Shown: piece by piece, positions 24,196 through 64,000 of the stretch
Position numbering within the stretch: the stretch's first letter is position 1
How the letters are laid out: each line of letters begins with the position of its first letter
From: an uncultured Defluviitaleaceae bacterium
Lineage (GTDB): Bacteria; Bacillota; Clostridia; Lachnospirales; WRBF01
Length of the DNA: 64,000 bases
Reading direction: 5' to 3'
NCBI GenBank assembly: GCA_964533945.1
Contig: CAZHPA010000002.1
Span: forward strand, 68,997-132,996
Program-made: the position numbers and the translations under genes
Notes under the pieces: model-generated
The model's input: the letters and a program-made list of their open reading frames with translations, nothing else
Database searches by the model: none
What the model was told of the DNA's origin: nothing

Positions 24196-24221
24196 GCCAA
24201 GTTGCTCTTATTAAGCGATAA

Positions 24222-24295: not shown

Positions 24296-24335
24296 TTATT
24301 GAAAAGTATTTTAAAACATTTTATATAACGTTAAA

Positions 24336-24409: not shown

Positions 24410-24465
24410 ACACTAAGAGTCATGTTAAGTGTTTAAAACTATAAGCTAAACTTGCCATGTATTGC

Positions 24466-24494
24466 ATTTTAGCAGAAACGTAATTGCTTGTCAA
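24466..24494 (-). promoter_or_regulatory. Sigma-A promoter for the tRNA-Pro/tRNA-Met transcription unit
   Basis: The minus strand reads TTGACA, 17 nt, TAAAAT, about 55 nt upstream of tRNA-Pro. Confidence 0.55.
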
Positions 24495-24682
24495 TAGTTT
24501 TTTTGAAATAAATTTTAAATTTTAGCGTTGTTTTGTTTAGTTTTAACATAAGGGTGCTATTAAGTTAGGCCTAAGTTAATAATTGTAATTAAGTGGGTTT
24601 TATAGTATTTTAGGGAAAATATTATTATTTTACATTTTAATGTATTATCCAAAATAGAAATTTATATAATTGGAAGTAACTT

Positions 24683-25048
24683 ATGATTACAAGGATACAA
24701 ACAAATTGTGGTGATGACACTTGTTCATCTTGCGTTATTGCTGGTGACTTTATCTTTTTGGCACATCACGGTGGTGGGCACGACAAAAAAGAGATTGTTC
24801 ACCAAGTAAGAGCTACGTTTGAAAGTATGAAGAAAACACTAGAAAACGTTGGTGCGACACTTGACGATGTAGTGCAACTAAATTTTTATATTAAAAATGT
24901 TGAAGATTTCCGCAAAGGTGCAGATGCATTTAGTGAGTATTTCAAGAGCGGTGCTCCTGCGAGAATGACAGTTGTGACAGAATTTATAGGAGAAAACTGT
25001 TTATGCCAAATGAACGCAATTGCATATAAGCCTAACCACACCAGTTGA
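24683..25048 (+). CDS. RidA/YjgF/L-PSP family protein
   Basis: 121 aa with a family-like C-terminal pattern (VQLNFYIKNVEDF...PARMTVVTEFI....C.MNAIAYK). Confidence 0.65.
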   Translation: MITRIQTNCGDDTCSSCVIAGDFIFLAHHGGGHDKKEIVHQVRATFESMKKTLENVGATLDDVVQLNFYIKNVEDFRKGADAFSEYFKSGAPARMTVVTEFIGENCLCQMNAIAYKPNHTS

Positions 25049-25171
25049 GTATAACATTTGTATTGAACTAAGTAATTATAATATAATAAATAAAACAATC
25101 ACGAAAAACAGCCCCCTTGAAAATCTTGGTGGCTGTTCTTGCTGAAAAATGTCTTTAGTCCCGACTTGATA

Positions 25172-25200
25172 TTGACAGTATAATGATAAAAATGTATAAT
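25172..25200 (+). promoter_or_regulatory. Consensus sigma-A promoter upstream of the dockerin/cohesin gene pair
   Basis: Exact TTGACA (25172-25177), 17 nt, TATAAT (25195-25200). This implies a leader of ~145 nt before the ATG at 25354. Confidence 0.6.
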
Positions 25201-25353
25201 AATTTTTAAAGCATACATGCGTTTATATTATTTGTTAATAACTAAATTTGCAATCTAAGTTTTTTTAGGGGGGCGAAATCAAACAGATTAAAAACTTTAG
25301 CTTTCATTTTTTTGTGCATGAAAAGTATTAAAAATAAAGGAAGGTGCTAATTA

Positions 25354-25896
25354 ATGTTAAAATCAATTAAAGCAATGTTTTCTTTAGCAGTTATTACAGC
25401 TGTAACTTTTTCAAGCTCTGTTGTTTCTTTTGGTTTAGAAATTAATTCTGTAGAAGCGGTTGGCGGTCAACAAGCTTCTGGTGATAAAATTAGCTCCAGC
25501 GTATATACTACTGAAGAAGGCTATATTATTACACAGCCAAAACTAACGGTTCAACAATTTTTGCAAAATGTTACTCCAAGTGGAAGAGTTACAGTTTATA
25601 AAGGCACAACACAACAAACAAATCAAACAACTATTGCAACTTCAATGGAAGCTAGGCTTTATGATGGCTCGAATGTTATTGACACTTTAACACTGGCTGT
25701 TTTAGGCGACACTAGCGGAAGCGGCACAGTTTCTTCTGGTGATGCATTAAGGGTTTTGCAACATACAACCAAAAAAATAACCTTAACACCAGTGCAACAA
25801 AAAGCAGCCGATGTTACAGGCAAAGACGGCGTTAGTTCATTCGATGCTCTCAATATATTGCAGTTTTCATCAGGAAGAATAACAGAATTTAAATAA
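25354..25896 (+). CDS. Small secreted protein with a C-terminal dockerin-like module
   Basis: 180 aa. Signal peptide, a ~90-aa N-terminal domain, then two dockerin-like segments (GDTSGSGTVSSGDALRVLQ and ADVTGKDGVSSFDALNILQ). The second loop departs from the canonical DxNxDGxxxxxD. Confidence 0.55.
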   Translation: MLKSIKAMFSLAVITAVTFSSSVVSFGLEINSVEAVGGQQASGDKISSSVYTTEEGYIITQPKLTVQQFLQNVTPSGRVTVYKGTTQQTNQTTIATSMEARLYDGSNVIDTLTLAVLGDTSGSGTVSSGDALRVLQHTTKKITLTPVQQKAADVTGKDGVSSFDALNILQFSSGRITEFK

Positions 25897-25913
25897 TTTA
25901 CAGAGGTGATAAG

Positions 25914-28900: not shown

Positions 28901-29678
28901 TGTTCTTAAAGCAGGAGAAAATGGCATTTCAAATCTTGGTAAAAACGGAAAAGCCGAAATCGCTATTCCATATAAGCCAGCAGCAGGAGAAAATCTTAAT
29001 GCAATAGTTGTTTACCAAATTAATTCAAAAGGCGAAGCGCAAGTTATTAAAAATGCTAAATATAATTCGAAAATAGGTTGTGTAACATTTACCGTACCTC
29101 ATTTGTCAAAATTTGCTATAGGATATAATCCTATTGAATTTACAGATGTTTCAAAAGATTCAGGATATTATGATGCTGTTTCATTTGCAGCAGCAAGAGG
29201 CATAACTTCTGGAACTTCAGCTGAAACATTTAGCCCAATGCAAACATTAACAAGAGCCCAATTTGTTGTTCTTCTTATGAATGCATATAATATTGCGCCG
29301 GATGTTAGTCCTGAAAATAACTTTGAAGATGCAGGCGACGATTATTATACAGGCTATTTGTCAGCTGCAAAACGTTTAGGTATTTCGGCAGGTGTTGGCG
29401 ATAACATGTTTGCACCTAACAAAGAATTAACTAACCAAGAAATGTACACATTGTTATATAATGCGTTGAAAGCAATTAATGAGCTTCCAAAAGTAAAAGG
29501 CTCAAGAACGTTTGAATCGTACAAAGATGCAAGCGAAGTTGCCGATTGGGCAAAAACTGCAATTAGCACATTAGTTGAAACAAGAGTTGTTGGTATTGGT
29601 ATGGATACTATTAATCCAACAGGTGCAGCAACAAGGGCAAGAATGGTTCAAACTTTACACACTTTGCTTAATCTATAA
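25914..29678 (+). CDS. SLH-anchored cell-surface scaffoldin-like protein with two cohesin-like modules
   Basis: 1254 aa. Signal peptide, then cohesin-like modules at ~26001-26399 and ~26406-26798 (GKPGDTVKVTVTM...AACDYEMLFDNTELEI; GLPNSTVNVKVSL...ADYEFKYNPAELEL). YDG/MBG-like repeats occupy ~26811-28133, an InlB-B-repeat-like module ~28137-28370, and a poly-Ser tract 28377-28433. An unassigned segment follows, then three SLH motifs at ~29135-29675. Confidence 0.8.
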   Translation: MTKFVKKIIALTMILALTVCNLVIANAAGELIAYYTVSTVSGKPGDTVKVTVTMNTTAKVAACDYEMLFDNTELEIISATTPYEGFVQLNPNQGEGYVRLGRVNNNPGDTGQHTVMEINFKILKTGGEPFLQFSATGARDITNNAYGDPVQTQVTQGKINIIQDAATYTVSTSAGLPNSTVNVKVSLDTKRKIKTADYEFKYNPAELELLEQPTTDLTAGMYTITVDEENLGTITMSTDNSNGDTGKIDILKFKFKVLKDSGESPLQFKVIDCVDTWVPVGNKIPTYVNPGKVIVSSKTPTAVTVTKPSNIIYGETLEDPAATAAITGAGNTFTYAYSGTALDGTQYTGTDKPTKAGTYTVTATLVSNSHVGQGTKTFSISPKLVTLTKGTVVVDSKVYDGNVQATTSGELGISGLLAEDTEVKAVATSIEFASKNAGTAINMIAKGYSLTGNGSKNYTVSSGNISNLTGEISPKAVTLTKGTVVVSPKVYDGTITATKTGEFGISGLLAQDTKVRAQALVEFVSKDAGTAVSVIAKNYSLTGENYQNYTIESNNVSGLTGVISQKPVTLSKGTVVVDSKVYDGNVQATTSGELGISGLLAQDTEVKAEASSIEFVSKNAGATISMIAKDYALTGVGSQNYKLSSGSISGLTGAITKRPIEVKIDDATKEYGEPNPSFTFALTDPTQLVEGETVQGLLIRLSSLATPASPVGSEHAITGASSNLNYNVTFINGLLKVVSATKKYSVTLTSDNGGRAAITSNATQYYYGDTVTIKATPNAGYYFYNWTVTSGSVTIDKPSSAETSFKMPAGNVTIKANFRLYSESSSSSSSSSSSSSSSSSSTPYIPPTSSEQKTTPAVVSSKTSATVSIKPTVQFEGIVSGKVDTASVNKLIEDVKKAEKEGTEKTIEIKVEKLQNVKSYTTEMASSDFKRIAESTKASVKIDTELAYVALNSHAVSNVSNSAKSGNVAVTIEKALETYISGAAKDAVDNRPVINIVLKAGENGISNLGKNGKAEIAIPYKPAAGENLNAIVVYQINSKGEAQVIKNAKYNSKIGCVTFTVPHLSKFAIGYNPIEFTDVSKDSGYYDAVSFAAARGITSGTSAETFSPMQTLTRAQFVVLLMNAYNIAPDVSPENNFEDAGDDYYTGYLSAAKRLGISAGVGDNMFAPNKELTNQEMYTLLYNALKAINELPKVKGSRTFESYKDASEVADWAKTAISTLVETRVVGIGMDTINPTGAATRARMVQTLHTLLNL

Positions 29679-29684
29679 ACAAAT

Positions 29685-29720
29685 AAAAACAGTGCAGAAT
29701 AATTTTCTGCACTGTTTTTT
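29685..29720. terminator. Bidirectional intrinsic terminator
   Basis: Perfect 11-bp stem ACAGTGCAGAA/TTCTGCACTGT flanked by an A-run and a T-run, between convergent genes. Confidence 0.7.
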
Positions 29721-37801: not shown

Positions 37802-40183
37802 TTGGTAAAAGAGCTTGATTATACAAAATTAAAGCAATTTATAAAAATTGAAGATTTAAACTTCAGAACAACAAAGGAGCTAGAAAGCTACACAGACATA
37901 ATAGGGCAAGAGCGGGCTAAAAAAGCTTTAGAATTTGGACTTAGCGTTAAAATGAAAGGCTATAACATTTACGTTTCGGGGCTTCCTGGAACAGGCAGAA
38001 CAACTTTTTCTGAACAATTTGCAAGAAAAATTGCCAAAACCGAAAAAACACCTCCCGATTTATGCTATGTATATAATTTTAAAAATCCAAAATGCCCCAA
38101 AATGTTAATGCTTCCTCCAGGAACAGGTAAGATAATTAAGGAAGAACTTGACGACCTTATTAACCGCCTTACAAATGAACTCCCCAAGGTTTTTAGTGAT
38201 AAAGATTTTGAAAACAGCAAGGCTGAAATAGTTAAAAGCTATCATGATAAGCGAGAAGAAATAATTAAAGTTGTTACAGAAGAAGCAAGAGAGCAAATGT
38301 TTGGAGTTAAAACTACAAACACAGGAATTTATTTTATGCCTATCGTTGATGGAGAAATCATTTCAGAGGAACAATTTGATGCACTACCTCAAGATAAAAA
38401 AGACGAAATATCTAAAAATTCTGAAGCAATCCAAAAAAGAGCACAAGAGGCAATGCGTGAAATAAAAGACTATGAAAAATTAATTAGAAAAGATGTTGAT
38501 GATTTTGAATATAGCATTGCCCTTCTTGCTGTTGGTCATCAATTAAGCCCTTTGCTTGAAAAATATAGTAATAATGATGATGTTGTTAAATATCTTTTGG
38601 AAATTAAGGAAGACATTTTAGAAAATGTTGCCGATTTTTTAGAACAGGAAACAAGTGAAGAAGCTGTGTTTCCTTGGTATCCTAAAAAAGCACCAGAAGA
38701 TAACTTTTCAAAATATAAAGTAAATTTATTAACAGACAACTCAAATCAAACAGGAGCGCCGGTTATTGTAGATTTTAACCCAACATATTCTAATTTAATC
38801 GGTGAAATAGAATATGATAATGAGTATGGAAATTTAATAACCGATTTTATGAAAATTAAGCCGGGCTTAATTCATAAAGCAAACGGTGGCTATTTAATAT
38901 TGCAAGCATATGATTTATTTTCTAATTATCACGCTTGGGAAGCTTTAAGGCGTGTTCTTTTAACAAAAGAAGTTGTAACAGAATGCTTGCGCGAATATTC
39001 AACAGGAGCGCTAGTTTCAGGAATTAAACCTGAGCCTGTGCCAATTGATTTAAAAGTTATTATAGTTGGAACAGATTTCTTCTATAACTTGCTTTATGAA
39101 TATGATGATGAATTTTCAAAATTGTTTAAAATATATGCCGATTTCGATTATGAAATGAACCATACAAAAGATATTATAGAGCAAATATCACGCTATGTTA
39201 AAGCATTTGTTGAAAAAGAAAAAACGCTTGAATTTAGCGCATTAGCAGTTGCTGCTGTAATTGAACATAGCGTAAGGCTTGCTGAACGGCAAGGCAAATT
39301 AACAACACGTTTTAACCGCATTTGTGAGGTTCTTGCCGAAGCATATACATGGGCAAAGCTTGAAGATGCTTCAATTATAACTGAAAAGCACGTTAAAAAA
39401 GCTATTTCAGAGCATGAATTTCGCTTTAACATGTATGAAGAAAAGCTTTCTGAATTAATTGAACAAGAAATAATTATGATTGATACGCATGGCTTTAAAG
39501 TTGGGCAAATTAACGGTCTTGCCGTATTTGATGCCGGCGACTATGCTTTTGCAAAGCCAAGCAAAATTACAGCAACAACATATGTTGGAAAAGCCGGAAT
39601 AATTAATATAGAAAAAGAAGCAGAAATGAGCGGCTCTATTCACGATAAAGGAGTTCAAGTTTTAAGCGGATTTTTAGGGCAAACATATGCGCAAGAATTT
39701 CCTTTATCATTGTCATGCAGGCTTTGTTTTGAACAAACATATAGTGGTGTTGATGGTGATAGTGCTTCAAGCACAGAACTTTACGCAGTTTTATCAAGCC
39801 TTGCAGATGTTCCAATTAATCAGGAAATAGCCGTTACAGGAAGTATAAATCAGCGTGGAGAAATACAAGCTATTGGAGGAGTTACTTATAAAATTGAGGG
39901 CTTTTTCGATTTATGCAACAAAAGAGGGTTAACCGGCAAGCAAGGAGTAGTTATTCCGTATCAAAATGTTAAAGATTTAGTTTTAAAAGATGAAGTAATT
40001 GAAGCAGTTAAAAACGGCATTTTCCATATATACCCTATAAGCCATGTTGATGAAGGCATTGAAATATTAACAGGCATTAAAGCCGGAATTAAAAACGAAA
40101 AAGGCAAATATTCGCCCGGAACAATACATGGAAGAATATTTAAGAAATTAAAAGATTTTTACAAAAAATCAATTAATGAATAA
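37802..40183 (+). CDS. Lon-like ATP-dependent protease (AAA+ module plus S16 protease domain, COG1067-type)
   Basis: 793 aa. Walker A is GLPGTGRTT. The C-terminal Lon protease motifs are DGDSASSTELYAVLS and IGGVTYKIEGFF. TTG start lies 8 nt after AGGGGG. Confidence 0.8.
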   Translation: MVKELDYTKLKQFIKIEDLNFRTTKELESYTDIIGQERAKKALEFGLSVKMKGYNIYVSGLPGTGRTTFSEQFARKIAKTEKTPPDLCYVYNFKNPKCPKMLMLPPGTGKIIKEELDDLINRLTNELPKVFSDKDFENSKAEIVKSYHDKREEIIKVVTEEAREQMFGVKTTNTGIYFMPIVDGEIISEEQFDALPQDKKDEISKNSEAIQKRAQEAMREIKDYEKLIRKDVDDFEYSIALLAVGHQLSPLLEKYSNNDDVVKYLLEIKEDILENVADFLEQETSEEAVFPWYPKKAPEDNFSKYKVNLLTDNSNQTGAPVIVDFNPTYSNLIGEIEYDNEYGNLITDFMKIKPGLIHKANGGYLILQAYDLFSNYHAWEALRRVLLTKEVVTECLREYSTGALVSGIKPEPVPIDLKVIIVGTDFFYNLLYEYDDEFSKLFKIYADFDYEMNHTKDIIEQISRYVKAFVEKEKTLEFSALAVAAVIEHSVRLAERQGKLTTRFNRICEVLAEAYTWAKLEDASIITEKHVKKAISEHEFRFNMYEEKLSELIEQEIIMIDTHGFKVGQINGLAVFDAGDYAFAKPSKITATTYVGKAGIINIEKEAEMSGSIHDKGVQVLSGFLGQTYAQEFPLSLSCRLCFEQTYSGVDGDSASSTELYAVLSSLADVPINQEIAVTGSINQRGEIQAIGGVTYKIEGFFDLCNKRGLTGKQGVVIPYQNVKDLVLKDEVIEAVKNGIFHIYPISHVDEGIEILTGIKAGIKNEKGKYSPGTIHGRIFKKLKDFYKKSINE

Positions 40184-40234
40184 GTATTTTAAAAACCTTC
40201 TTGCAAATAATAATTTAGCAAGGAGGTGTTTTTT

Positions 40235-40924
40235 ATGAAAGTGGCAACCTTATTAATAATTTGTTGTATTTGCATGGTAGGCTGCAACGGAAAATCACAA
40301 AACATGGCAAATGCAGTTATAAATGCAGTTCCTCCTGATTTTGGAGGTTTGGCAAGCTCTGAAAGTTCCGAAACTATTGGGGAATATACAACCAAATTCG
40401 ACTCTCAAAAATCAGCACGAGGCAAAAATATTATGCGTGCTTCAAAAGCTATAGATGAAATAATAGTTAATCCGGGCCAAGAGTTTTCGTTCAACAATGC
40501 TGTTGGCCCAACAACAAAAAGTAATGGATTTGAATTAGCCCGTATTTTTATAAAAGGCGAGGAGAAAAAAGGATATGGTGGAGGCGTTTGCCAAGTTAGC
40601 AGCACGCTATATAACGCCGTTTTGCAAGCAGGGCTTGAAGTTACAGAACGCCATGTTCATTCAAAAGAAGTTTTTTATGTTCCAAAAGATAAAGACGCAG
40701 CAACCTCACATGGAGGAATAGATTTTAAATTTGTTAATAACAAAGATTTCCCTATTAAAATACAAAGCTATACAGTAGACAATAAAGTTACAACAGCCAT
40801 AATGATTTCCCCCTCTGCAATAAATGAGGGGGAAAACTTAATTAAATTCAACAACAGTAACTCCGGCATCTCCTTCCCCAAATTTTCCCAGCCTGTAGCT
40901 TTTAACGTGGGTGTGGCGTTTTAA
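40235..40924 (+). CDS. VanW-domain lipoprotein
   Basis: Lipobox ICMVGC. The VanW core is GQEFSFNNAVGP...GYGGGVCQVSSTLYNAVLQAGLEVTERHVHS. ATG at 40235 follows AGGAGG. Confidence 0.75.
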   Translation: MKVATLLIICCICMVGCNGKSQNMANAVINAVPPDFGGLASSESSETIGEYTTKFDSQKSARGKNIMRASKAIDEIIVNPGQEFSFNNAVGPTTKSNGFELARIFIKGEEKKGYGGGVCQVSSTLYNAVLQAGLEVTERHVHSKEVFYVPKDKDAATSHGGIDFKFVNNKDFPIKIQSYTVDNKVTTAIMISPSAINEGENLIKFNNSNSGISFPKFSQPVAFNVGVAF

Positions 40925-43198
40925 GTGTTCATGTATTGCCGCCCTTAAAACTCCTGTTCCTTTTCCGTGTATAATTGTAACTTGGGAAATTCCTGAAAGA
41001 TATGCATCATCAAGGTATTTATCTGTCTTTTCAATTCCTTCCGAAACTAAATAGCCTCTTAAATCAAGTTCTGGCGAAACAGTTAAGCTTTTTTGAAGCT
41101 TAACGCTATGAGAAACTGCTTTATTGTTAAATTTAATTGTTTGTTCGCTTTCATCATGTGATAAGTCTTTAATTTTAACTTTTATTTTCATTATTCCGGC
41201 CAAAACGGTTACTTCCTTGTCCGAATCAATTGAAGTTATAATTCCGCTTTGATTTAGCGTTCTAACAAAAACTTTGTCGCCTTTACTTAATTTTTTAGTA
41301 ATGGGCTTGTAGTTTACTTTATGCTCTGTTGACTTTTCAAGCTGCGAAAGTTTTTCGCTAATTTTTTGCCTAGCTTCTGAAATTGATTTTTGAGAGCTAT
41401 TTTCTTTAAGCTGCTTTTGAAAATCTTTAAAAAGAACATCTGCTTCTTCTTTTGCTTTTTGCATTAACTCTCTTGCTTCTTCTTTTGCTTTTTGAAGTAG
41501 TTTTTCACGTTGACTGTTTAGTTTTTGCTTTTGAATTTCCGCTTCTTTATGCAGCTTTTCCGCTTCTTGTCTAAATGCTTCTGCTCTTTCTTTTTCAATA
41601 GATAACTGCTTACGGCTTATTTCAAGGTCTGTTATAACATCTTCAAGGCGAACGTTTTCATTGCTTAATGTTTCTTTTGCAGCCGAAATAATATAATCTG
41701 GAAGCCCTAATTTTTGAGAAATTGCAAATGCATTACTTTTGCCCGGAACTCCAATTAAAAGCTTATATGTTGGGCGCAGAGTTTGAACATCAAATTCACA
41801 GCAAGCATTTTCTAAGCCTTTTGTTGAAAGCGCATACACCTTTAATTCACTGTAGTGGGTTGTAACAATTGTTCTAACTTTTAGCCCATGAAGAAATTGC
41901 AAAATTGCAATAGCCAATGCCGCTCCTTCTGTTGGGTCTGTTCCTGCTCCTAATTCGTCAAGCAAAACAAGCGAATTGCAAGTTACTTCATCAAGTATTT
42001 TAACTATGTTGCACATATGAGAAGAAAACGTGCTAAGGCTTTGTTCAATGCTTTGCTCGTCGCCTATATCTGCAAAAATGTTGTCGAAAACGCTAAGTTC
42101 GGAATTGTCATTGGCGGCAATATGCAAACCGGCTTGTCCCATTAATGTAAAAAGCCCTACGGTTTTTAAAGAAACAGTTTTACCACCTGTGTTTGGCCCT
42201 GTAATTAAAAGTGTTGTAAAGTCTTTGCCGATGTAAATATCTGTTGGAACTACTGTAGTTTTATTTAAAAGAGGGTGTCTTCCTTTTCTAATGTTAATGT
42301 ACCCGTTATCGTTAAAAACAGGTTGGCTTCCATTCATTGCAAGAGAAAGCTCACCTTTTGCAAAAACAAAGTCGATATATGTTAGCGTTTGCGAATTTAA
42401 AAGCAACAGTTCACTACTTTCTGCAACCATAGAAGATAGCTTAATTAAAATCTTTTCAATTTCTTTTTTCTCATCTGCATCAAGTTCTCTAATTTTATTG
42501 TTTAGCTGCACAACACTAATTGGTTCTATGAAAACCGTTGCTCCTGTTGAAGATTGGTCGTGAATCATGCCGTTAAACGAATTTTTATATTCCTGCTTTA
42601 TAGGAACACAAAAGCGCCCGTTTCGCATAGTTATAACCGAATCTTGAAGCATTGTTTTGTATGTTTGGGAATGTATTACGCTATTTAATTGCTCTCTAAT
42701 TTTATCATTTTGTATTTTAATATTTCGGCGTATAGTTAATAGCGCTTGGCTTGCATCATCCGCTATTTCGGTGCTGTTGATAATACAACGGTTTATTTCA
42801 CGCTCAAGCTGCGGAACCGTTTGTATTGCCGAAAAATACGGAAAAAGAATTGGGAAAACGTCATTTTTATTTTCTGCCTTTGAATAGTTAACGGTTTTTT
42901 TGCAAACATATAAAAATTCCCCAACATGCAAAAGCTCCTCTATTGATAAAACGCCACCAATTGCTGTACGCTTAATTGATTCCTCAACATCATGTATACC
43001 GCCTAACGGCAAAGAACCCTTTTTTAATATCATGCTTACAGCTTCTGTTGTTTCTTTTTGCCATGCTTCAATTTCTTCTCTATCGCAAGAAGGCAATAAT
43101 TCAAAACACATCTGCTTGCCCATTTTTGATATTGCTTTTGATTTAAGCATATCTATTATTTTGTTAAATTCCAATGTTGTTATCGCTTTTTGGTTCAA
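40838..43198 (-). CDS. mutS2: Endonuclease MutS2 (MutS domains plus C-terminal Smr)
   Basis: 786 aa. Has ITGPNTGGKT, a coiled-coil linker and a Smr tail ending ...GEGDAGVTVVEFN. TTG start. Confidence 0.9.
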   Translation of the reverse strand: MNQKAITTLEFNKIIDMLKSKAISKMGKQMCFELLPSCDREEIEAWQKETTEAVSMILKKGSLPLGGIHDVEESIKRTAIGGVLSIEELLHVGEFLYVCKKTVNYSKAENKNDVFPILFPYFSAIQTVPQLEREINRCIINSTEIADDASQALLTIRRNIKIQNDKIREQLNSVIHSQTYKTMLQDSVITMRNGRFCVPIKQEYKNSFNGMIHDQSSTGATVFIEPISVVQLNNKIRELDADEKKEIEKILIKLSSMVAESSELLLLNSQTLTYIDFVFAKGELSLAMNGSQPVFNDNGYINIRKGRHPLLNKTTVVPTDIYIGKDFTTLLITGPNTGGKTVSLKTVGLFTLMGQAGLHIAANDNSELSVFDNIFADIGDEQSIEQSLSTFSSHMCNIVKILDEVTCNSLVLLDELGAGTDPTEGAALAIAILQFLHGLKVRTIVTTHYSELKVYALSTKGLENACCEFDVQTLRPTYKLLIGVPGKSNAFAISQKLGLPDYIISAAKETLSNENVRLEDVITDLEISRKQLSIEKERAEAFRQEAEKLHKEAEIQKQKLNSQREKLLQKAKEEARELMQKAKEEADVLFKDFQKQLKENSSQKSISEARQKISEKLSQLEKSTEHKVNYKPITKKLSKGDKVFVRTLNQSGIITSIDSDKEVTVLAGIMKIKVKIKDLSHDESEQTIKFNNKAVSHSVKLQKSLTVSPELDLRGYLVSEGIEKTDKYLDDAYLSGISQVTIIHGKGTGVLRAAIHEHLKRHTHVKSYRLGKFGEGDAGVTVVEFN

Positions 43199-43276
43199 AA
43201 GTTATCAATCCAATCTAAAAATCTTAAAAAATATATAGACAATTAAATTAAACTATGCTATAATATATAGTAATGA

Positions 43277-43350
43277 GTATTTGTAGCTCAGTTGGATAGA
43301 GCAATCGCCTCCTAAGCGATAGGTCGCAGGTTCAAATCCTGTCAAGTACA
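43277..43350 (+). tRNA. tRNA-Arg (anticodon CCT)
   Basis: Folded by hand as GTATTTG-TA-GCTC..GAGC-A-ATCGC-CTCCTAA-GCGAT-AGGTC-GCAGG-TTCAAAT-CCTGT-CAAGTAC-A. Confidence 0.85.
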
Positions 43351-49386: not shown

Positions 49387-52300
49387 CTAAATAATTTCTT
49401 TTGCCACAGCTTCTTCCGAAACAATTTCTTCAACAGTTTCTTCTGTTTCAGTTTCTTCTGCTGCAGCTTCTTCTAAAGAATCTTCTTCTGTTGAAGTTTC
49501 TGTTTCTTCTTCTGTTACATTGTCTTCTGAAGCATCTTCTTCAACAACATCTTCTTCTGTTGCATTGTCTTCTGGAGCGCCTTCTTCAACAACATCTTCT
49601 GTTACATCTTCTTCAACAACTTCTTCAACAACTGCTTGTGCAGGAGCTAAAGGAGCAAAAGCTTCTAATAAAAATGCAGTTGTAAGTTCTTGGCCAGGTA
49701 TAGCAAATGTTCCTGTACCTGTTGCTTTTCCATAAATTTGAAATTCCCATATTGAAACAGTAGCCCAAGGAATTCCTACCCCTGTAGCATCTTCTAATTG
49801 GAAGTTATCTATAACCAATTTAACATATCTTCCTCTAGCAGAAGTATATAACAATATTTCCTCTTTGTGTGTTTGTGAAGGTTTTGTTCCAACAAAAACA
49901 GGTGTTCCAAAATCGCCTGGGTCGTTTGAAACATAAAGTTTATAGTCTGTTGCATTACATCTTTCCCAAATAATAGCAACTTCGCTAATAGATACTTCTT
50001 CGCCTAAGTCAACTTGAAGCCATTTTTGGTTAATTCCGTTTGTGCTTGCCCATCTCGATTGACCAGAGGTACCGCCATCGAAGGCTTTGTCGGCTGCAAA
50101 GTGGCTGGCTTCTTCTCCGTTTGAAGAAGCTGTTTGATTTAAAGCTAAATTAACTTTTTTGCTTCCATAAACTTCAAATTCATGTACAGAAACTGTTGGA
50201 TAATTAACATTGTCGCAGTTTGAAATAAAGTTGTTTATATAAAGCCTTACATATCTTGCAGAAACTGGTGTTTCTAAAGCTATAGTTTCTTTAAATTCTG
50301 TTGGGAAATCTGTTTGTGCATAAACTTCTGTCCAATCAGTTCCATTGCTTGAAACTTCAATTTTATAGTCGTCTGCGTTTCTTCTTTCCCAGTCAATAAC
50401 AAAATTTGTAATTAAACTTTCTTCTTGCAAATCAACTTGAAGCCATTTTGGGTTAATTCCATATGAACTTCCCCATCTTGTTCCACTGTCGCCATCAAAA
50501 GCTTTTTCGACTGCAATGTGACTACCTTCATCTCCGTTTGCAGAAGCAGGCTTGTTTAAAGCTAAATTGCCACTTACAACGTCAACTTCAATTTCAGTAG
50601 TAGGTATAGCAATTGTTTTTGTATCTTTTTGAGAAGCGCTGTTTTCATCAACATAGTCAAATTTAACTTCAAATGACCAGCCGTTTCTAGTTATTTGTGG
50701 TGAAAGCTTAGTTTTATCAATTACAACGCCATATGCAACATATTCTTCGGAACCAGCGTCCCATTTGCCTATAACGTAAACACCTTTTTGAACATAAGCT
50801 ATTTCATATTCAGTGCCATCTATTGCAAAGCTTGCAAAATCAGCTGGGTCAGGTTTATCACCAATAATAGTAGCGTCTGAGTCAACATAATAGTCGATGC
50901 TGTAGCCTGTAATTCCAGTATCTACAGAAGTAGAATCTTTAATAAATTTTGCACTAGTAAGTACATCTAAAGAGTCTTCAGCGCCATTTGTTAATAAGAA
51001 GCCAATAAAATCTACATCTGTTTCGCTTTCACTAGCGCTACTGCCGTTAAATGTTAACGAATATGTGCCTGTAATAATTTCTGAAGTTATATCGCTTGTA
51101 ACTTCTGATTGAACTGCTTCAACTTCAAAAGTTTTTTGAATTTCAGCTTTTTTAGGTGTAACAGTTGAATTATTTTCATATCCAGCAGTTACATTATATT
51201 CAGCTTTGTTTGCGTAATAAATTGCAACATCATAAGTGCCAACTGCAAGTGCCGAAGTAGGAATAGTAAATGTGCTGCCGCTAGCTTCGGTAAAGCTAAC
51301 TTCTGTTTCGATTCCGTCTTCTAATTTATAGGAAACAGTTGCGCCAGAATTAACTATATCTTCAGGTACGTTAACTACAGCATGTGCGCTTCCAAACGAA
51401 GTATTGTTTACAACAAGCGTACCTATATTTGTTGGGTTAACATACAATATTCTAATAGCTTCTGCTTCAGTAATGCCTGCAACAGCAGCTGCTTTAGCTT
51501 TGATTATATAGTAACCAACTTTTGTACGGCTTAATGTGCCTCCAGAAATATCAACATTTGATAATGAGTCGGAAGCATTATTGCCAACAAACTCAACGGT
51601 GTATGCTAACGTTCCTGCGTTAACCCCTGCAAATGTTTCGCTCAGTGAAGCTGATACTCCAGCTTGAATGCCACTGAATTGATAAGCAGTTGAAGAAACT
51701 GGAGTTGCAATAGAAAGTGAATTTAAATTAACGCTTTGAGTTAATGTTTTTGGAGTTCCAGATATAATGCCAGCAGTTGCAATTGCAGCTGAACCAACAC
51801 TTACAGTTACTTGACCAGCTGTTGTTGCTGCTGTGTTAAGTAAAACTTTTATTTTTGTATCTGAAATACGTTCAACGTTAGCAACAGTTGCTGAAGCACC
51901 TGTTGTACCTGCTGTTAAAGAAATAGCGCTTGTGCTTACGCTTGAAGCAAAAGTTCCGGTTGTTGTTAATTCAATTACGTTGCTTCCTACTTCAAGGTTA
52001 ACATTAACTGTTGCTGCACCAGTAACGCCATCAAAAGTACCTATTGTTGTTTTAACTGCTCCGTTTGTGTCATAAATTACTTCAAATGACCAGCCGTTGC
52101 CGCTTACCCCAAGTTCTGTAAGCTTTTCTTTGCTAAATACAACGCCGTATGATGCATATCCTCCAAAATCTCCTAAGTTTTCGTCCCATTCCCAACCGAT
52201 AAGGTAAATACCTTTTTCGACATAAGCTATTTCGTAGTCATTAGCATCTGTAGAACCATTAGTTCCAGATATTTCAAAGCTTACAAAATTAACAGGGTTA

Positions 52301-55300
52301 GGGTTAGCTAATGGATTATTATCGCCACCGCCAACATAGCAATCAGGTTGATAAGCTTTAACATCTAATGTTTTTGCAGCAGTGCCGTTTTTAATAACTT
52401 TTACTTGGTTAATTCTTTGTATTTCAGCACTGTTGGCATTTGATAACAAGAAACCTACAAAATCTTTATCTGTTTCGCTCTTGCTAGCATCAGCACCATT
52501 GAATGTTAATGTATATTTGCCTTGAAGCAATTTTTTGCTTAACAAATCAGTTGGGGCATTAAATATTGCTGTTAATACAAGTTCTTTTGCAGTTCCGCCA
52601 GAGTTTGCAAACCCTTCAACCCAATATGGGTTTTCGTAGAATAATGTACCCTCGTATGCTATACCGGGTTTAACTCCTCCTGCAATAGCGCTGCTGTTAA
52701 ATGAGTCTGCTGTAGTTGTAACTGCAGCTTTAGACACTATTGTCATGTCGTTTTCTTTAAGGGCATAATACATTTTTGCACCTTCCATTAATAATGGAAC
52801 TGCAAATTTAATCGCTGTTAAATCTTCAGTGCTTTCCACTTCAAAGTCAAATGGATTGTTTGAAGGAATTTGCGGATTAACGTATAACACTCTATTTTTT
52901 GTTACAGCTGCTATAGCGCCAATTGCGTTTGCTGCGTATTCTGCTCTGTAGTAGCCAATTTTTGAACGGGATAAAGCGCCAGTTCCTGTAACTTCTTCTT
53001 CTGTATCTGTAGTTTTATGATACAAAGTAGGTGCTGAAGCATTTTCTATAACTTCCCCATCAACTTTTACTTGTGCAGGTATAACAAAGGTAGCGTATGG
53101 TAATGTATTAGTTGAGTATGCTAAAATAAAAGGATTCATAGCACTAGAATCAGTAAATTCAATAGTTTGAACTGCTGTTAATGCAGTTGCAGTTGTTTCA
53201 GTTACTGGTGCTGTGTCATCTGTATATGCTTCGTCTTTAATAGTTAAAGTTGCTGTTCCTGCTGTAGCTGCTGCAGTTGTAAATGCAACTAAAGCTTTTT
53301 TGCCACTATCATAAACTTTTACGCCTGCTATTGTTAAACTTGCGCCTGCAAGTGTTAAGTTGCCAGCAGATAAATTAGAATCGAATGTTTTTCCGTCTTC
53401 TGTAATTTCTAATTTAATTGCGTTGTTGCCTGCTGCTATATCAACTTCTTGACCTGTTGTTGATGCTTCTTCAACTATAACTGTAGCAACATCAGAAGTT
53501 ACGCTAGTTGCATCTGTTGCAGAAACTACACAATAGTAGTAGTAAGTGTCTGCTGCATCAGTTGGAACTGAATAAGTTGCGTTAGTTTCGTCTGCAATTA
53601 TAGTTCCGTCTACGTTGCTGTCTGTTGTATTTGAATACCATTGATATTCTAAAGTTGCACCTTCTGTAACTGTTGCTGTAACTGATAAAGTAGCAGTGCC
53701 ACCAACTGTTACTGTTGTGTCTTGAGGTTGAGCAGTAATAGTTATAACTGGAGTTGCTATTACTTCTTCTTCAACTATAACTGTAGCAACATCAGAAGTT
53801 ACGCTAGTTGCATCTGTTGCAGAAACTACACAATAGTAGTAGTAAGTGTCTGCTGCATCAGTTGGAACTGAATAAGTTGCGTTAGTTTCGTCTGCAATTA
53901 TAGTTCCGTCTACGTTGCTGTCTGTTGTATTTGAATACCATTGATATTCTAAAGTTGCACCTTCTGTAACTGTTGCTGTAACTGATAAAGTAGCAGTGTC
54001 ACCAACTGTTACTGTTGTGTCTTGAGGTTGAGCAGTGATAGTTATAACTGGAGTTGCCGGTGCTGGGTTAACTACAACTGTAGCAATAGCAGAATTTTTG
54101 CTAGCTGCACCTGTTGCAGAAACTACACAATAGTAGTAAGTAGTAGCTGCTGTTGTAGTTGGAACTGTGTAAGTTGCACTAGTTGCACCTGTAACTGCAG
54201 TTGCGCCTGTTATGCTGTTTGTTGTGTTTGAATACCATTGATATTCTAAAGTTGCACCTTCTGTAACTGTTGCTGTAACTGATAAATTAGCAGTTCCGCC
54301 AACTGTTGTTGTTACGCCTAAAGGTTGAGCAGTAATAGTTATAACCGGAGCTACTGCTAAATTCCCTTGCAATAAGTCTGCTTTAACAATCCATTCATAT
54401 GTGCTGTTTACCAATTTTACGAAGCCAACAGGAGTTGATGGGTCAAAACTTGTTATAGTGTTATTGCTATTAGCAACAACGCCTATTGCGCCACTTCCTA
54501 TTTCATAGTTCAAGTTTCCATTACCATCATCAACAAGAAGAACTGCGCCATCCTTTTGTAATGTTACGCCTGCGTCATTGCCAGGTGTATCGTTACCAAT
54601 TACAAGGTTTCCAAGTACTTTTAATACAAAAGTTCCATCTGCTGCTGTAGCAGAACTAGTTGGAGCAAGCAGTGTTAAAACACCGCTTGCAACTATAAGA
54701 TTTTGTCCTTCATTAACAACAAATGCTTTTCCGCTTCTTTGCTTTAAGCTTGTGCCGCCATTTAATACTATATCAAATGGAGAAGGAGTTGTGCTAAATA
54801 ATGTAACGCCTGAACCTTTGAATGTCATGCTTGCGCCGTTATCAAGTGAAAACCAAGCATCATCTTCTTTAGCATCACCTGCAGGGCAAACAATTAAATC
54901 ATCTGCTCCACCAGTTCCGTAAAGATAACCGCCACCATTAACTGTTAATTCTAAGCCTGCAGTATTAGTTCCGCCAAAGCCATCATAATCAAAGTTAGTA
55001 GCTGTTGCGCCGCTTGCAATTTCAATTTTAACTTCACTGTTAGCAATATCAAAACCATCAGGGAAAACAAGGTTAACGCCTACAGGTACAGTAATTATAA
55101 CTTCGCCTACATCTGCTATTGATTCTGGAAGTTTAACTTCTTTAGGGTCTGCTGCGTCAGCGCCAACTGGAGTTTGTATAGTAATTGTTATTGGAGTGCC
55201 GGGTACTGGTGTTATTGCTTCAAATGCTGCATCAAGAGTTTCTGTATTTTTAACAATAATTTCATCAGAACCTGCGCCTACTGTTAAATCTTCTAATGAA

Positions 55301-58300
55301 TCATAGCTAATCATTATTTCAATTTCTGTTGCGCTTACGCTAGTAATTTTGTAACCTGCTGCGCCTGAAAGTGAAGAAGAAGAATCTAATTTAACAAGGC
55401 TATCAAATGAGCCAAAACCAGCGCCAGTTTGCCAATCAGTAGTATTAAATTCATAACCAGCTTCAGCGGTTACTTTAATTTTCCCAATATATTGCGAACC
55501 TGCTGCAAAAAGTTCTCCGCCGCCTGCTCCTGTTGTTTCATCTGTCCACCAGCCTTCGCTTGATGCTGTTGCATAAGTATCTGCAATTGTTATTTCTTTT
55601 TGCCCTGTTGCATCTTTACCAACAAGAAGCCCTGGTGCTTTAATTGTTAAACTTTCTATTGCAGTTGCTGCCGCAGGAATTGAAATTGTTGATTCAAGTG
55701 AACCTGTGCAGTTTGCAGCTGTTACTATAACTTTAATTGTTTTGCCTAAATCACCAGTAACTAAAGTATAAGTTGAAGCTGTTTCGCCAGCAATTGCTGT
55801 GTAGTTTGTGCCATCGCTAGAGCTTAACCATTCATATGTTAAAGTTCCATGATATGTTGGAGTAGCTCCTGATACAGCTGCTGTTAATGTTTGGCCATCT
55901 GCTGCAGTACCTGTAATTGCTACTGTTCCGCCTAATGTTGCTTTAGTAACTGTTAATGTAAATGTAATGTCTGTATTTTGGTTGCCGCTAGCATCTTTAA
56001 TTGTGCCTGCTGCAACTTTAAATGTAAACGTACCTGCTGCACCAATAAGTTCGTTTCCTGCTGCAGGTGTAATTGTTGCAGTAGTGCCGCTTAAAGTAAA
56101 TGTGCCGTAATGTACATCGCCTGTTATTCCAGTACCTGAAATTGTAATATTTCCGCTTGTACCTGTAACAAAGTCTGCAGCTTCACTTAATGTTGCTGTA
56201 ATAGTTCCACTAACTGATTGACCAACAAAGCCTGTTAAGTCTGTAGCATGAGTTTGTTGTGTTCCACCAATTGTTGCTGTTACAGATTCAAGAGTAGGAG
56301 CTGTTGTGTCTGGTGTTGTTCCTGCTATAACTTTAACGGTTGCTCTATTTGATGTTACAGTAGTTGTGCCTGATGTAATTACGCAATAAACTTCATATTC
56401 AACTGGTGTATTGCCTGTAGTCCATGTTAAAGTATCTGTGTATAATATCTCACCTGCAAACTTAGATACAACGCCTGCATCAACTCTGTACCATTCATAA
56501 ATTACTGGCAAACCAAAAGAATTAATTGTTGCTTCAACTGTTAAAGAAGCTTCTGTGTTAACTTCTACTTCTATATCTGCAGGGTGTGTAGTTATAGTAA
56601 TTGTAGGTGTAGGTGTTGTTCCTGAACCAACTACAACTTTAGCAAATCTTGAAGGAGCTGTAGGTAAGCTGTTGTCGTCTACAGAAACTACACAGAAATA
56701 GTACATAGTGCCTTCTGCGTTAGTTGGAACTGTAAAAGTAGGGTTAGTTTCGCCACCGATTGCTTGCGAATCAGCAAATGCGCCTGTTGGTGTCTTAACC
56801 CATTGATATTGTAATGTTTTGCCTACTGGAACAGTAACTGCTGCAACTGTTAAAGTAGCAGTGTCGTTAACATTTAATTTTAAATCTTGAGGTTGAGCAG
56901 TTATTTTAATTCCATTCGTTGCATCTTTAACGTTAAATGAAACCCAATCAGCCTCGCCGTCTACTGTGCTAATTTCTGAAGAGCCTTTTTTGTATGCATT
57001 TAGGAAGTAGTAGTGTTTTCCGTAAAGGATAATTGTATATTCAGATTCATCTGGGTTAAATTTTGTACGTTGAATCGTTCCTATTGGTGTGCTGCCTGCT
57101 TTAAGTACTATAGCGTTGTCATCAGCAGGAATTTCTGCGTATATTGATATAAATGATGGTGCTGCATACGCTGCTCCTCTTGGTCTAGGATTGAAAGTAT
57201 TCATATATGAAAGTTCAATTCCTCCAAGACTTGTTCCGCCTGTTGTTTTAACATAAACAGGTTTGTATGCTTCGATAGCGCCACTTCCATCAAGGCCATC
57301 TATTACTATAGAAACTTTTGTTGGGTCTTTAATACATTTTGATGGTTGTGTTGATTCATAAACGTCTTCGCTTATGTTTTCTGCTTTATCACGAGCTGTT
57401 ATTTGGATTGCAAGTGTTTCACCATCAACTTTTGTGCAACCTGTCCATACTTTATCTGGAGCTGTTAACTTAGCTGTGTATGTGTAAGGTGCTACAGTTG
57501 AAGTAGTTGTAATTTCTTCAACAGCAATGCCATGAGAGAATACTTTTTCTGCTGTTACTTCATCTATGAGCATTTCACCAACTAAAAATTCATTTAAATC
57601 AAGCGCTTCATCAATTATTCTTTCTGGGTCAAAAAGTAATTCGTCAGATTCAAATGTTATTGTTAATGCGCTTCCTATAACTGCATTGTTGTCTGTTCTG
57701 TCTGTTTTAATTACAACATTGTCAATTACAGGTGCTGTGTTATCATAAAGAACTTGATAATCAACATTTGCTGCATCTGTTGCTGCATCTGTATTTAAAA
57801 TTGTAGCAGCTGGGAAACCATCTTCGTTATAAGGTTCTATAGAATATGTGATATTGCCATCAAAATCAACTTCAACAGCTGTAACTTCATTAGCATTTAA
57901 ATCTAATGTTGCCGTGTAAGTGTAAGGTGTTGCTATATCAGCTGTTATTGGTGTAACTTTAATACCTGCTATTTTAACAACTGTCTTAGCGCCTAATTTT
58001 TCAACAGATTCAAATGTTAATGTAACTGTTCTTAATTTATTAGCTAAATTTGTATATTTGTCATTTGAAACAAAGCTTTTTACGCTAACTTCAAAGTGGT
58101 TGTTATAAGTAACTTGTGGTTTATTAGAATCACCTGTACCAACAGTTTCTGGACCTTTACATCCGAATAAATCTGCAGGTATTACACTATATGGTATTTC
58201 TTTGCCTTCTTCAATAGTAGTAATAACATATACAAGGTTGCCGTCAACGTCTACCACTAAGTTGCCGTCTGCATCTACTTCTTGTATAGTAAGAATATCT

Positions 58301-61300
58301 GCAACTTTAACTGTTAACTCGTAAGCGTATGTGAAGCTTGGCGATGTTCCTGTTTTTCCTGTTAATTTTAATGTGCCTAAACCTTCTGCATTAACATTAA
58401 TTCCACCGATTACTACTTGTGTTGTTGCAGTGCTTAATTCAACAGTTGTAGTGAATTTTAAAGTTACGCTATCTTGGTGTCTTGCAACGTTTGTTATAGG
58501 ATTGTTATTCACGTCTTTAATGTCGTTGTCTGACATAAAGCTTGTAATTGTTGTGTTGTATGTTGCAGCATGCGCTGGGTGATATTGAATACCGCTTGCA
58601 AGATTTCTTCTATGAGCTGTTTGTTGTTCATTTTCACCCCAAGCTATAAATTCAGCAGCAAGTTCATCTTTATGAGGACCATCTGCGAATATTGCAGGAT
58701 TTGTACCGAACTGATAACCTAAATCTACTCCATTAATAGTTCTGTATTTTTCTATTGTTGCTCTGTAGTAGAAATATCCAGGAGTTTTTATAATGCTTCC
58801 AGTTGCGTCTGTTGCTTCGCTAATTCCTGTAACATTTTTGCCAGCGTCTAAAGTAACACCAACTCTTGTTAAACCTTCAAGTTTATACGCAGCTTCCTTA
58901 TCAGCTGTTATGCCTTCAGGCAAGCCTAAATATACGCTATATGGTCGAGTAACATCAAGTGCTTTACTTGACTTGAAGTATAAGTCAATTTTATCTCCGT
59001 CGATAGAATATTTTATTGTTCCAGCATGCCCTGCAACTGTTATTGGAGCATGAGGATTGCTTGTTTTTGAAAACTGTTCTTCTAATGTTACAACAGGAGG
59101 AAGAACGTCTGTTTTTAATGTAACGTTATCATTTATTTTGTCTTCTCCAAGATAGTAAGCTACATTGTTAGGAGCTGCTCCTTTGTTTCCTGCCAAGTCT
59201 TCAACGTCTATCCAAAGTTTTATTATTTCTTCGGTATTTTGGTTGAATTCTCTTTCAAATGTATGTTTTGCCCAATAAGTGTTTGTATTACCTATTTGCG
59301 CAAAGTTAAGCACGTATTTTGTTCCAACATTATCATAGATATAAGCTATATTTGTCTTTTTGCTGCTAAAATCTAAAGCGCTGTCTGATGTTATTTCAAC
59401 ATATACTGTATCTGCTAAACCAACAAAAACTTCTGAACCAGATAACACTTCATCTTTTTCAATTGTCATTGCTGCATCTTTAAACACTTTAACTTTAACA
59501 GAATCAATAACAGGAGCAGTTGTATCTATAATGACATTTGTAATTTCGTTTGCTTCTTGTTTTGCAGTAAAGGTTGATTCGTCATCTTTGCCATAAAGTG
59601 AATGCACAAATTCTAACTTTTCAGGGGAAACAGGGTGTGCCATGCCTGCAGGTACTGTTACTGTTGCTGTATATGTCTTAGGTTGCCCGTTAACTTTTGC
59701 AAATGTTGCAGTTAAGCCACCAATTGTTCCAGTAGTGCGAACAGGTGTTTTGTCGAGGTCAAGTTCATTGTTAGTTGTGAAAGTTGCAATTATTTTATTG
59801 CCTTCTTTTGCCCAATAGAAATTGCCATCTGCACTTATTTGTTCGCCTTTTGCATTGTCTGTTTTGTAATCAATAGTAATGATTCTTGCAGGTGCTGGGT
59901 CAACTTTAACAGAAACTTTGCCGTTAACGCCTACAACGTCAAATGCAGTTTTAACTTCATATCCAGCAATAATTGTAGTATTATCTACGCTATTAACAGG
60001 GTTTGGTTTTCCTGCTGCTATAGTTATTTTATTAGCTTCATATAATCCCAATGGGAATGTACTTGCAAGTGTTCCGTCTGCGTTTCCTGTATATGAAACA
60101 GCATATAAAACTTCGCCATCAACTGTAACTTCAGTACAAGCGCCTGTTGCAGTTAATGTAATTGAAGGCTGGCTTGCATGTTCTAAAACTATAGTTGAAC
60201 CGCTAAAGTTTGTAATTGGTCTTGCAAAATAAGCTATTGCTTCAATTGCGTTAGTTGTATCATCGCTAATAGTTATATTCTTTCCTTCGGCAGTTACTGT
60301 TGTAGAAGTTCCTGCTTTATTTGTTAATACAATGTCAACGATTTCAACAGGGTTAACGTTTAAGCCGGAAACTTCGCCTGAAATTATAGTTTTTGTGCTT
60401 CCTATAGCAAGTTCAGGTGCTGTAGCAACAACGCTAAATGTTCCGTCTTCTCTCGCAAATTTACTGCTGTCAGTAACATTACTATCTACATCTTTTTCGT
60501 AAACGATTTCTAAGCTGTAACCTTTAAAGTCTGCAACTGAATGTCCACCAACGTAGTCAGCTTTAACTGTAAATAATGCTTTAATTTCGTCTGTGTTAAT
60601 GTTATCACTTACGTAAATATCAGCTGGCAATGTTGTGTTTGCTTTTTGAGTTAAAGTTAATTTTTCGATTGGTGCTTCGTTAATTATTAACTCTAAAGGA
60701 GTTATTACGCCGTTAACTCTAAAGCTTTTATTGCCTTGCATTACAGGATTTCCATTAACTAATACGTAAGTATTGTCAAGAATATAAACAGGTGTATTTC
60801 CAATTACAGGAGTTTGACCATTTTTAATTTGAGTTGCAACATATTTTCCTGGTTTAGCAGTTGCGCTAATGTCGCCTTTGTATTTTAAAGTAGAAGAAAC
60901 TTGTTTGTTGCCTGCATCTAAAGCAGCTTCAGGGTTAACAAATTCAACACCACCGTTTGTACCACGTCTACCAACTATAATTTGGCTAGCTGGGTCATCT
61001 ACATGAGTAAAAATTATTTCATTATCTTGGCTTAATCCGTTTGGATAAACTGGCTTTGTAAATGTAACGTCAACGCTAAATCCTTTTTGTCCTGTATTAG
61101 CTGTAACTTCTCCTGATACTAATGTAGTTGAATTTATTGTAGCTTTTTCAACAGTAACTGGGTAAACATCAAGTTCTGCAGTAGTTCTATCAACTGTATA
61201 GTTTTTAGGGTCTATTATTACCCCAACTTTTCCGCTATGCAATACAACATAATTTTTGCCATCAGCCATTTTAGCAAATCCAACAGTATCAGGTACTGCA

Positions 61301-64000: not shown

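Follow-up and report, generated by a model that had tools for sequence, protein, structure and literature searches.

How does a bacterium keep hold of an exported protein of half a megadalton, if it keeps hold of it at all? The question is raised by one end of a 64,000-nucleotide stretch of DNA from an uncultured Defluviitaleaceae bacterium (contig CAZHPA010000002.1; the whole stretch is called the window here), where a single giant open reading frame (ORF) occupies positions 49387 to 64000 and runs off the edge. A preliminary description, made from the letters alone, took its product for a repetitive surface adhesin or fibril. Is the gene real and complete? Does its product carry an anchor at either end? 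And if not, what might it be doing? The gene proves to be intact, and its predicted product has no catalogued Gram-positive anchor, be it at the N-terminus, at the C-terminus or in between. Our tentative reading is that of a Sec-exported, acidic, 548-kDa multi-module fibre that would bind glycans near its C-terminus and be retained on the cell, if at all, by non-covalent, N-proximal contacts.

An intact gene and a complete protein

Six-frame analysis found a single stop-free stretch across the region, on the minus strand and still open at window edge 64000. The gene is delimited as follows (fragment residues are counted from the window edge; P0001 is the database entry for the full protein, introduced below).

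49390..63999, minus strand: window part of the giant ORF, 4870 stop-free codons, fragment residues 1-4870, corresponding to P0001 residues 363-5232
49387..49389, minus strand: TAG stop codon
49342..49369, minus strand: intrinsic terminator AGCTCCC-TTTTTA-GGGGGCT plus T-run, about 20-45 nucleotides (nt) past the stop

Given the base composition, the probability of 4870 stop-free codons arising by chance is about 10^-154. The two alternative frames hold 16-64 stops per 1.5 kb and the ORF frame none; GC at codon positions 1/2/3 is 0.49/0.45/0.17, and the coding signal is even along the whole length. Synonymous codon usage correlates with that of eight housekeeping genes of the window at r = 0.94, which marks the gene as native. 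A convergent ABC-transporter gene terminates 200 nt beyond the terminator. Because the terminator directly follows the stop, the C-terminus is the true end of the gene and there is no space for a hidden sorting signal; a frameshifted sorting signal downstream of the stop was considered and ruled out on this ground. On the opposite strand, a 94-codon 'ORF' at 49401-49685 (plus strand), inside the part encoding a Glu-rich tail, is the shadow of the GAA-rich coding strand and no gene.

Where could the assembly have gone wrong? At 53448-54344 lie three 300-nt units in tandem (97% and 80% identical), which encode the immunoglobulin (Ig)-like Ig_3 modules 4-6. This is the sole place where short-read assembly could plausibly have miscounted modules, and since the repeats are in frame a miscount could alter only the number of Ig modules. 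The same repeats are a likely hotspot for copy-number change.

The missing end of the protein was recovered by an exhaustive HMMER search with fragment residues 300-1400 against 1.84 billion representatives, which gave one match, P0001, 5232 amino acids (aa) long and 100% identical. P0001 forms a singleton cluster. Its residues 363-5232 are identical to the window translation, and its first 362 lie beyond position 64000. The entry derives from the same NCBI contig (138,062 bp) and is therefore not an independent confirmation of the ORF. The uninterrupted 14.6-kb frame of the preliminary description thus stands, and its 'at least 4870 codons' can be made exact: the gene is intact, with 5232 codons, native codon usage and its own terminator.

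What does the recovered N-terminus look like? It begins with MSKRHDRSAIKSVALLLAFILTLGSFSNITFA and, past the cleavage site, AAS. Residues 1-34 form a Sec-type signal peptide whose n-region is basic, whose hydrophobic core is 14 residues long and whose cleavage site, …SNITFA/AAS (the slash marks cleavage), is of the small-x-small (A-x-A) type. Its c-region is nearly identical to that of a secreted fucosidase encoded nearby (…SNITYA/QNS). The mature protein has a mass of about 548 kDa and an isoelectric point of 4.4. The first 250 residues carry a net charge of +3, every other 250-aa block is negative, and the last 232 aa have a net charge of -44.

The search for an anchor

If the protein is exported, what could hold it? 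Every segment, recovered N-terminus included, was scanned with Pfam at E<=1, a cut-off at which the HMMER filters still drop most matches weaker than about E = 0.1. Motif and hydrophobicity scans covered the 4870 window residues; for the N-terminal 362 the family scans were combined with a direct reading of the sequence. The list of monoderm wall-binding families is that of Table 1 and the text of PMC5817068, as far as these go.

For LPXTG anchoring, no LP.T[GAS] motif occurs in the 4870 window residues and no segment matches PF00746. Nor do these residues contain a GW or YSIRK motif. On the Kyte-Doolittle scale the highest 19-residue average, 1.76, is reached at fragment residue 2961, inside a beta-rich module; the top hydrophobic windows are all far from the C-terminus, so that no terminal transmembrane helix is seen. 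Neither the S-layer homology (SLH) domain (PF00395) nor Dockerin_1 (PF00404) matches in any segment, N-terminus included. Matches to the dockerin-like regular expression 'DSNVDGTIIADE' were rejected, as they are unpaired and lie inside duplicated Ig_3 modules. Across the whole protein the E<=1 matches contain no LysM, WXL, SH3 types 3/5/6/7/8 (GW included), SPOR, CW-7, CWB1, CWB2 or ChW, and the NCBIfam scan found no anchor family anywhere. Could it be a giant adhesin of the type I secretion, repeats-in-toxin (RTX) kind, such as LapA, SiiE or MpIBP? There is no HemolysinCabind or other RTX match, a Sec signal peptide is present instead, and the surrounding genes are those of an endospore-forming Firmicute.

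The signal peptide, read directly, has no YSIRK motif, and P0001 residues 1-250 contain no Cys and hence no lipobox. Within residues 1-562, Pfam at E<=1 returned only a sub-threshold Big_4 fragment; NCBIfam and PDB sequences gave no match to the recovered region, and a word-index homolog search with residues 33-362 gave none in an index that apparently lacks the giant protein itself. A single-sequence AlphaFold2 (AF2) model of this region has a predicted local distance difference test score (pLDDT) of 39.6.

Is such a negative result informative? The same Pfam library detects SLH, cohesin and dockerin domains in neighbouring ORFs, which makes it meaningful for the giant protein. The protein thus stands outside both anchoring systems, SLH and cohesin-dockerin, that its organism evidently uses. 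The preliminary description had seen no LPXTG, SLH, dockerin or terminal transmembrane helix at the C-terminus, and the scans agree; its view that the attachment cannot be read from the sequence now extends to the whole protein, since the upstream part that it wanted checked has yielded a signal peptide and neither YSIRK, SLH nor any other anchor.

A chain of about forty modules

The window fragment is rich in T (13.8%), A (10.6%), V (9.7%) and G (8.0%), and the protein appears to be built of about 40 small, mostly beta modules. More than 80% of the residues fall outside any above-threshold Pfam or NCBIfam match, and this unmatched part is also without a PDB sequence match. From the N-terminal side, all on the minus strand, the modules are:

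63400..63975, minus strand: B-type module B0 (fragment 9-110) and an unclassified module of about 100 aa (101-200), by self-profile
63106..63390, minus strand: Ig_3-type module 1, fragment 204-298, by self-BLAST, Pfam and self-profile
59893..63120, minus strand: five A modules (105-160 aa) alternating with four B modules (about 95 aa), fragment 294-1369, by self-BLAST and self-profile (E = 1e-26 to 1e-45)
56917..59892, minus strand: block of about 990 aa of divergent modules with 'TAPVID' and 'DxAGN/DKAEN' motifs, fragment 1370-2361, by motif scan
56323..56916, minus strand: two Ig_3-type modules, fragment 2362-2459 and 2465-2559, by self-BLAST, Pfam and self-profile
55720..55923, minus strand: AIR9-A9-like Ig module, fragment 2693-2760, PF23197 at E = 1.5e-4 and 22 bits, below the cut-off of 27.5
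54355..55299, minus strand: possible beta-solenoid or beta-helix block, fragment 2901-3215, from a low-confidence AF2 model, no family match
53467..54348, minus strand: three tandem Ig_3-type modules, fragment 3218-3312, 3317-3411 and 3417-3511, by Pfam Ig_3/Ig_7 and self-profile
50590..53466, minus strand: duplicated supermodule of about 480 aa, C1 (fragment 3512-3995) and C2 (3996-4470), by self-BLAST, 35-48% identity between copies
50164..50568, minus strand: F5/8 type C (discoidin, CBM32-like) module 1, fragment 4478-4612, by Pfam and PDB
49729..50151, minus strand: F5/8 type C (discoidin, CBM32-like) module 2, fragment 4617-4757, by Pfam PF00754/PF22633
49390..49647, minus strand: acidic low-complexity C-terminal tail of 86 aa, fragment 4785-4870, with 31 Glu (36%) and 7 Asp

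Which of these can be recognised? The discoidin pair has a Pfam match in two stretches (E = 6e-38; 130 bits, cut-off 28.2), and its second module arose as a copy of the first within the protein, to judge by 47-55% identity. There are also the Ig_3/Ig_7 modules with the 'YQWY…YYC' pattern, six in total by Pfam, self-comparison and self-profiles, the last two of the tandem trio being 92% identical as protein and 97% as DNA. The tail, which ends …AVAKEII, has no hydrophobic segment, and acidic tails are absent from all other ORFs of the window.

The rest is mostly orphan. The unclassified module at 101-200 is 36% identical to one module of a Bacteroidota giant protein. The A- and B-module profiles have no PDB match. 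The block 1370-2361 matches neither Pfam nor NCBIfam, and a word-index search with residues 1381-2100 gave no homologs at E<=1e-5. The copies of supermodule C, apparently of four sub-modules each as judged by eye, have no Pfam, NCBIfam or PDB match, and residues 3510-4480 gave no homologs in a word-index search.

Are all the modules beta-sandwiches, as first described? The unclassified ones may be, their low-confidence models being mostly beta-strand, but the block 2901-3215 seems to differ, on non-significant evidence. A single-sequence AF2 model of region 2780-3215 (pLDDT 45 overall, locally up to 73; predicted template-modelling score 0.40) has short, regularly spaced strands. Foldseek found no significant match for it (best E = 0.12, TM-score <= 0.22), and right-handed beta-helix proteins make up almost all of the weak matches, among them tailspikes, pectate and alginate lyases, Ag43 and the binding region of a serine-rich repeat protein (SRRP). 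This gives a hint, and only a hint, that the block may be more solenoid-like than sandwich. The other structural claims of the preliminary description, namely the repetitive T/V/A/G-rich composition, the several Ig-like YQWY...YYC modules and the two discoidins near the C-terminus, hold as they were made.

How might the protein be held, and what might it do?

How could such a protein work? Under our tentative reading, the signal peptide would be cleaved after Sec export, and the roughly 40 mostly beta modules would form an extended acidic stalk, possibly broken by the beta-solenoid block. The tandem discoidin pair would be the distal glycan-binding tip, beyond which the Glu-rich tail would extend as a disordered segment of strong negative charge. 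If the cell retains the protein, the contact would be non-covalent and N-proximal, via the orphan N-terminal region of 340 residues, the one part of the chain without a net acidic character. The polarity would then be N-in/C-out, as proposed for HycP of Ruminiclostridium cellulolyticum, and the likely role that of tethering the cell, or the cell's surroundings, to a glycan substrate.

Several points weigh against this fibre model. No sequence feature demonstrates retention on the cell. The N-terminal region has no family match and its model only a pLDDT of 39.6, and the wall-binding role given to it is one that we infer purely from polarity and charge. Glycan binding by the discoidin pair is predicted, with no particular ligand assigned, and the giant protein is itself predicted from its gene, its expression being putative. 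A knockout of HycP had no adhesion phenotype (PMC3723904), which means that such a layout is no guarantee of an adhesin role. The surface adhesin or fibril that had been suggested at the outset is therefore best divided: the protein is giant, repetitive and exported with a Sec signal peptide, but its retention on the cell is not demonstrated by sequence. It may be held by weak N-terminal interactions or simply be released.

Release deserves to be taken seriously, even if we consider it on the whole unlikely. The protein would then not be retained after cleavage and would serve as a large glycan-binding cross-linker or agglutinin in the medium or the biofilm matrix. A signal peptide with an AXA-type site and the lack of a catalogued anchor anywhere are what one would expect; the strong acidity disfavours non-specific sticking to an anionic wall; and Clostridia are reported to have extracellular giants that lack anchors, the RCC1-type proteins of Oscillospiraceae (bioRxiv 10.1101/2023.11.21.568195). 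But why would an organism that invests in explicit anchoring (SLH, cohesin-dockerin) of neighbouring exoproteins let this one go? Discarding a 548-kDa protein is costly, and its N-terminal 340 residues, distinct, non-acidic and non-repeat, could be a retention module.

Could retention depend on a wall or S-layer mechanism not yet described, using the orphan N-terminal region, glycans of the cell itself bound by the discoidin pair, or cation bridges to the poly-Glu tail? We regard this as decidedly unlikely. The polarity might also be reversed, with the C-terminal end proximal to the cell (the discoidin pair on its own wall or S-layer glycan, or the tail via divalent cations) and the N-terminus as the distal tip. 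Non-covalent wall-binding modules in monoderms are commonly C-terminal and carbohydrate-directed, according to the table and text of PMC5817068 cited above, and it is precisely this end that has two lectin-type modules in tandem and an unusual tail. Yet F5/8 type C modules are outside the wall-binding domains catalogued in those parts of the source, the nearest solved relatives are substrate-binding modules of a glycanase, and the neighbouring fucosidase, with an internal F5/8 type C module, still needs a dockerin. Without intervening cations, anionic wall polymers should also repel an anionic tail. Reversed polarity seems improbable to us.

Is the signal peptide perhaps not cleaved at all? 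The N-terminal hydrophobic segment would then tether the fibre in the cytoplasmic membrane and the chain would thread through the wall. The hydrophobic stretch V13-A34 could span a membrane, and the same ambiguity has been reported for HycP (PMC3723904). The strongly hydrophobic core is only 14 residues, however, and is followed by a canonical small-x-small site (TFA/A or AAA/S), and other secreted proteins of the window have a matching c-region; we find an uncleaved signal anchor very improbable.

Alternatively, the protein might be a giant carbohydrate-active enzyme, with the block 2901-3215 as a divergent polysaccharide lyase or hydrolase on a stalk and CBM32 modules for targeting. CBM32 modules usually accompany glycoside hydrolases, and pectate and alginate lyases and phage depolymerase tailspikes dominate the weak Foldseek matches of the block. 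The same weak list, though, holds non-catalytic adhesins (Ag43, the SRRP binding region), none of the matches is significant, the model reaches a pLDDT of 45, and no Pfam or NCBIfam catalytic family appears even at E<=1, so that we give an enzyme only a slight chance. Least credible of all is a mis-assembled repeat region or a never-expressed ORF: near-identical 300-nt tandem repeats are present and P0001 comes from the same contig, but the length of the open frame (P ~10^-154), the uniform codon-position bias, the native codon usage, the signal peptide at the called start and the terminator stand against it, and in-frame repeats could change only the count of Ig modules.

Relatives and genomic surroundings

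Does the protein have relatives elsewhere? Species-representative genomes and metagenome contigs gave only module-level matches (Bacteroidota, Synergistota and other phyla). In a tblastn search against plasmid records the N-terminal half had no match, and within the C-terminal half the discoidin and Ig_3 modules alone matched; local phmmer and BLAST searches of the giant protein, N-terminus and tail included, found no match among the other proteins of the window. The exhaustive HMMER search described above is the strong negative; two of the three word-index searches (1381-2100, 3510-4480 and P0001 33-362), capped at 8000 candidates, are weak ones, and the same searches did not return the giant protein itself, which the index apparently lacks. 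How surprising is an orphan here? The ribonucleotide reductase, MutS2 and flagellin of the window each remain alone in their cluster when 15 billion proteins are grouped at 90% identity. Since housekeeping proteins are singletons too, the orphan status is partly due to poor sampling of the lineage, and that a fast-evolving exoprotein has no relatives is less striking than it seems at first.

The Ig_3 module type occurs in more than one phylum. A metagenome-assembled genome of Synergistaceae (locus L001, 8597-11881) encodes a 1094-aa protein whose Ig_3 region is 49% identical to the Ig_3 modules of the giant protein over 347 aligned residues; its tail, GGGGKGGC…LVLRKKIRNS, is Gly-rich, hydrophobic and basic and resembles a C-terminal sorting signal. 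Through MutS2, a Logan contig was found in run SRR10912418, an accession that no paper was found to mention; it matches the 12.5 kb of window 30838-43312 at 100% identity and stops short of the giant gene.

What kind of organism carries the gene? The window holds the gene order cysE-cysS-rlmB-yacP-sigH, dpaA/dpaB, flagellar genes, and SLH and cohesin-dockerin proteins, a content that fits an endospore-forming, flagellated, low-GC Clostridia-type bacterium. The flagellin (10803-13196, minus strand, 797 aa) and the FliD cap (6834-9779, minus strand, 981 aa) are both unusually large, with about 570 central residues each that have no Pfam match. A secreted 581-aa protein (15499-17244, plus strand) has an N-terminal copper-amine-oxidase-N1 domain and an unmatched remainder.

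The gene at 25914-29678 (plus strand) encodes 1254 aa, with a signal peptide, a pair of cohesins at the N-terminus, MBG/YDG and InlB-B-repeat-like modules, and SLH domains at the C-terminus. Its product resembles a cohesin 'anchoring scaffoldin' that is anchored by SLH and is unusual in its adhesin-type middle. Directly upstream (25354-25896, plus strand) a secreted 180-aa protein has a Dockerin_1 match at E = 2e-6, and the two may be a cognate pair. The gene at 30757-34500 (plus strand) encodes a glycoside hydrolase family 29 (GH29) alpha-L-fucosidase with F5/8 type C, Calx-beta and Ig_3 modules; its C-terminus is a clear two-loop dockerin, with loops DINSDGTVDVKD and DINKNGIIEISE. Enzymes for non-cellulosic, fucosylated glycans are what the cohesin-dockerin system serves here. 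A GH42 beta-galactosidase is also among the neighbouring genes, whose predicted targets are fucosylated and galactosylated glycans.

Comparison with known systems

Has anything like this been seen before? The closest analogue is HycP (Ccel_1491) of R. cellulolyticum, which has an N-terminus ambiguous between signal peptide and transmembrane segment, an unknown region of about 250 aa, 23 HYR repeats and a C-terminal carbohydrate-binding module (CBM), CBM3b, in 250 kDa (PMC3723904). Both are large exported proteins of cohesin/dockerin-using Clostridium-type organisms, each restricted to one lineage. Both have an N-terminal hydrophobic segment, an unclassified region of about 250-340 aa with a very weak bacterial-Ig match, a chain of Ig folds and a C-terminal CBM, and neither has SLH, dockerin or LPXTG. 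The differences are as clear: the CBM3b of HycP binds cellulose, whereas the giant protein, at 548 kDa, has no HYR or CBM_3 match and shows heterogeneous orphan modules, six Ig_3, two CBM32-like discoidins and an acidic tail instead. The two have no sequence homology and are therefore analogous rather than one family.

For the discoidins, full-length alignments were obtained with DD1/DD2, the tandem C-terminal discoidins of a Paenibacillus glucanase/chitosanase (4zy9, 2rv9, 2rva, 4zz5; E about 1e-17 and 1e-14); these closest solved relatives are chitosan-binding. There the discoidins follow the catalytic domain of a normal-sized enzyme, whereas here they end a non-catalytic chain of 5000 residues and are followed by the Glu-rich tail. 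The LPXTG- or SLH-anchored giants of Gram-positive bacteria share the Sec signal peptide, the long Ig-like arrays and the T/V/A/G-rich, acidic composition; they differ in their defining anchors, which were tested for and are absent from the giant protein. The Clostridia proteins of a 'giant genes' survey (bioRxiv 10.1101/2023.11.21.568195) are likewise very long, repeat-built and predicted to be extracellular, some are without transmembrane anchors, and the role proposed for these proteins is adhesion. They are larger (10,000-30,000+ aa), though, and no match to the repeats that build them (RCC1, Listeria-Bacteroides or YG), or to their dockerins, occurs in the giant protein.

What would the protein add to this picture? 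Should the cell retain it, that would point to an anchoring module of Clostridia that no catalogue lists, and with it to a new class of monoderm surface-display domain. Its roughly 30 beta-rich modules without database relatives would be useful targets for structure determination. An anaerobe that appears to forage for fucose and galactose, and that has cohesin-dockerin and SLH systems, would also encode a half-megadalton lectin-module fibre outside both, which matters for the way in which bacteria of this kind attach to glycan substrates. Exoproteins of giant size, built of repeats and carrying Ig-like and carbohydrate-binding modules, are already known in Clostridia; the present one, overall not homologous to any described family, is a lineage-specific, well-verified but unexceptional example of them.

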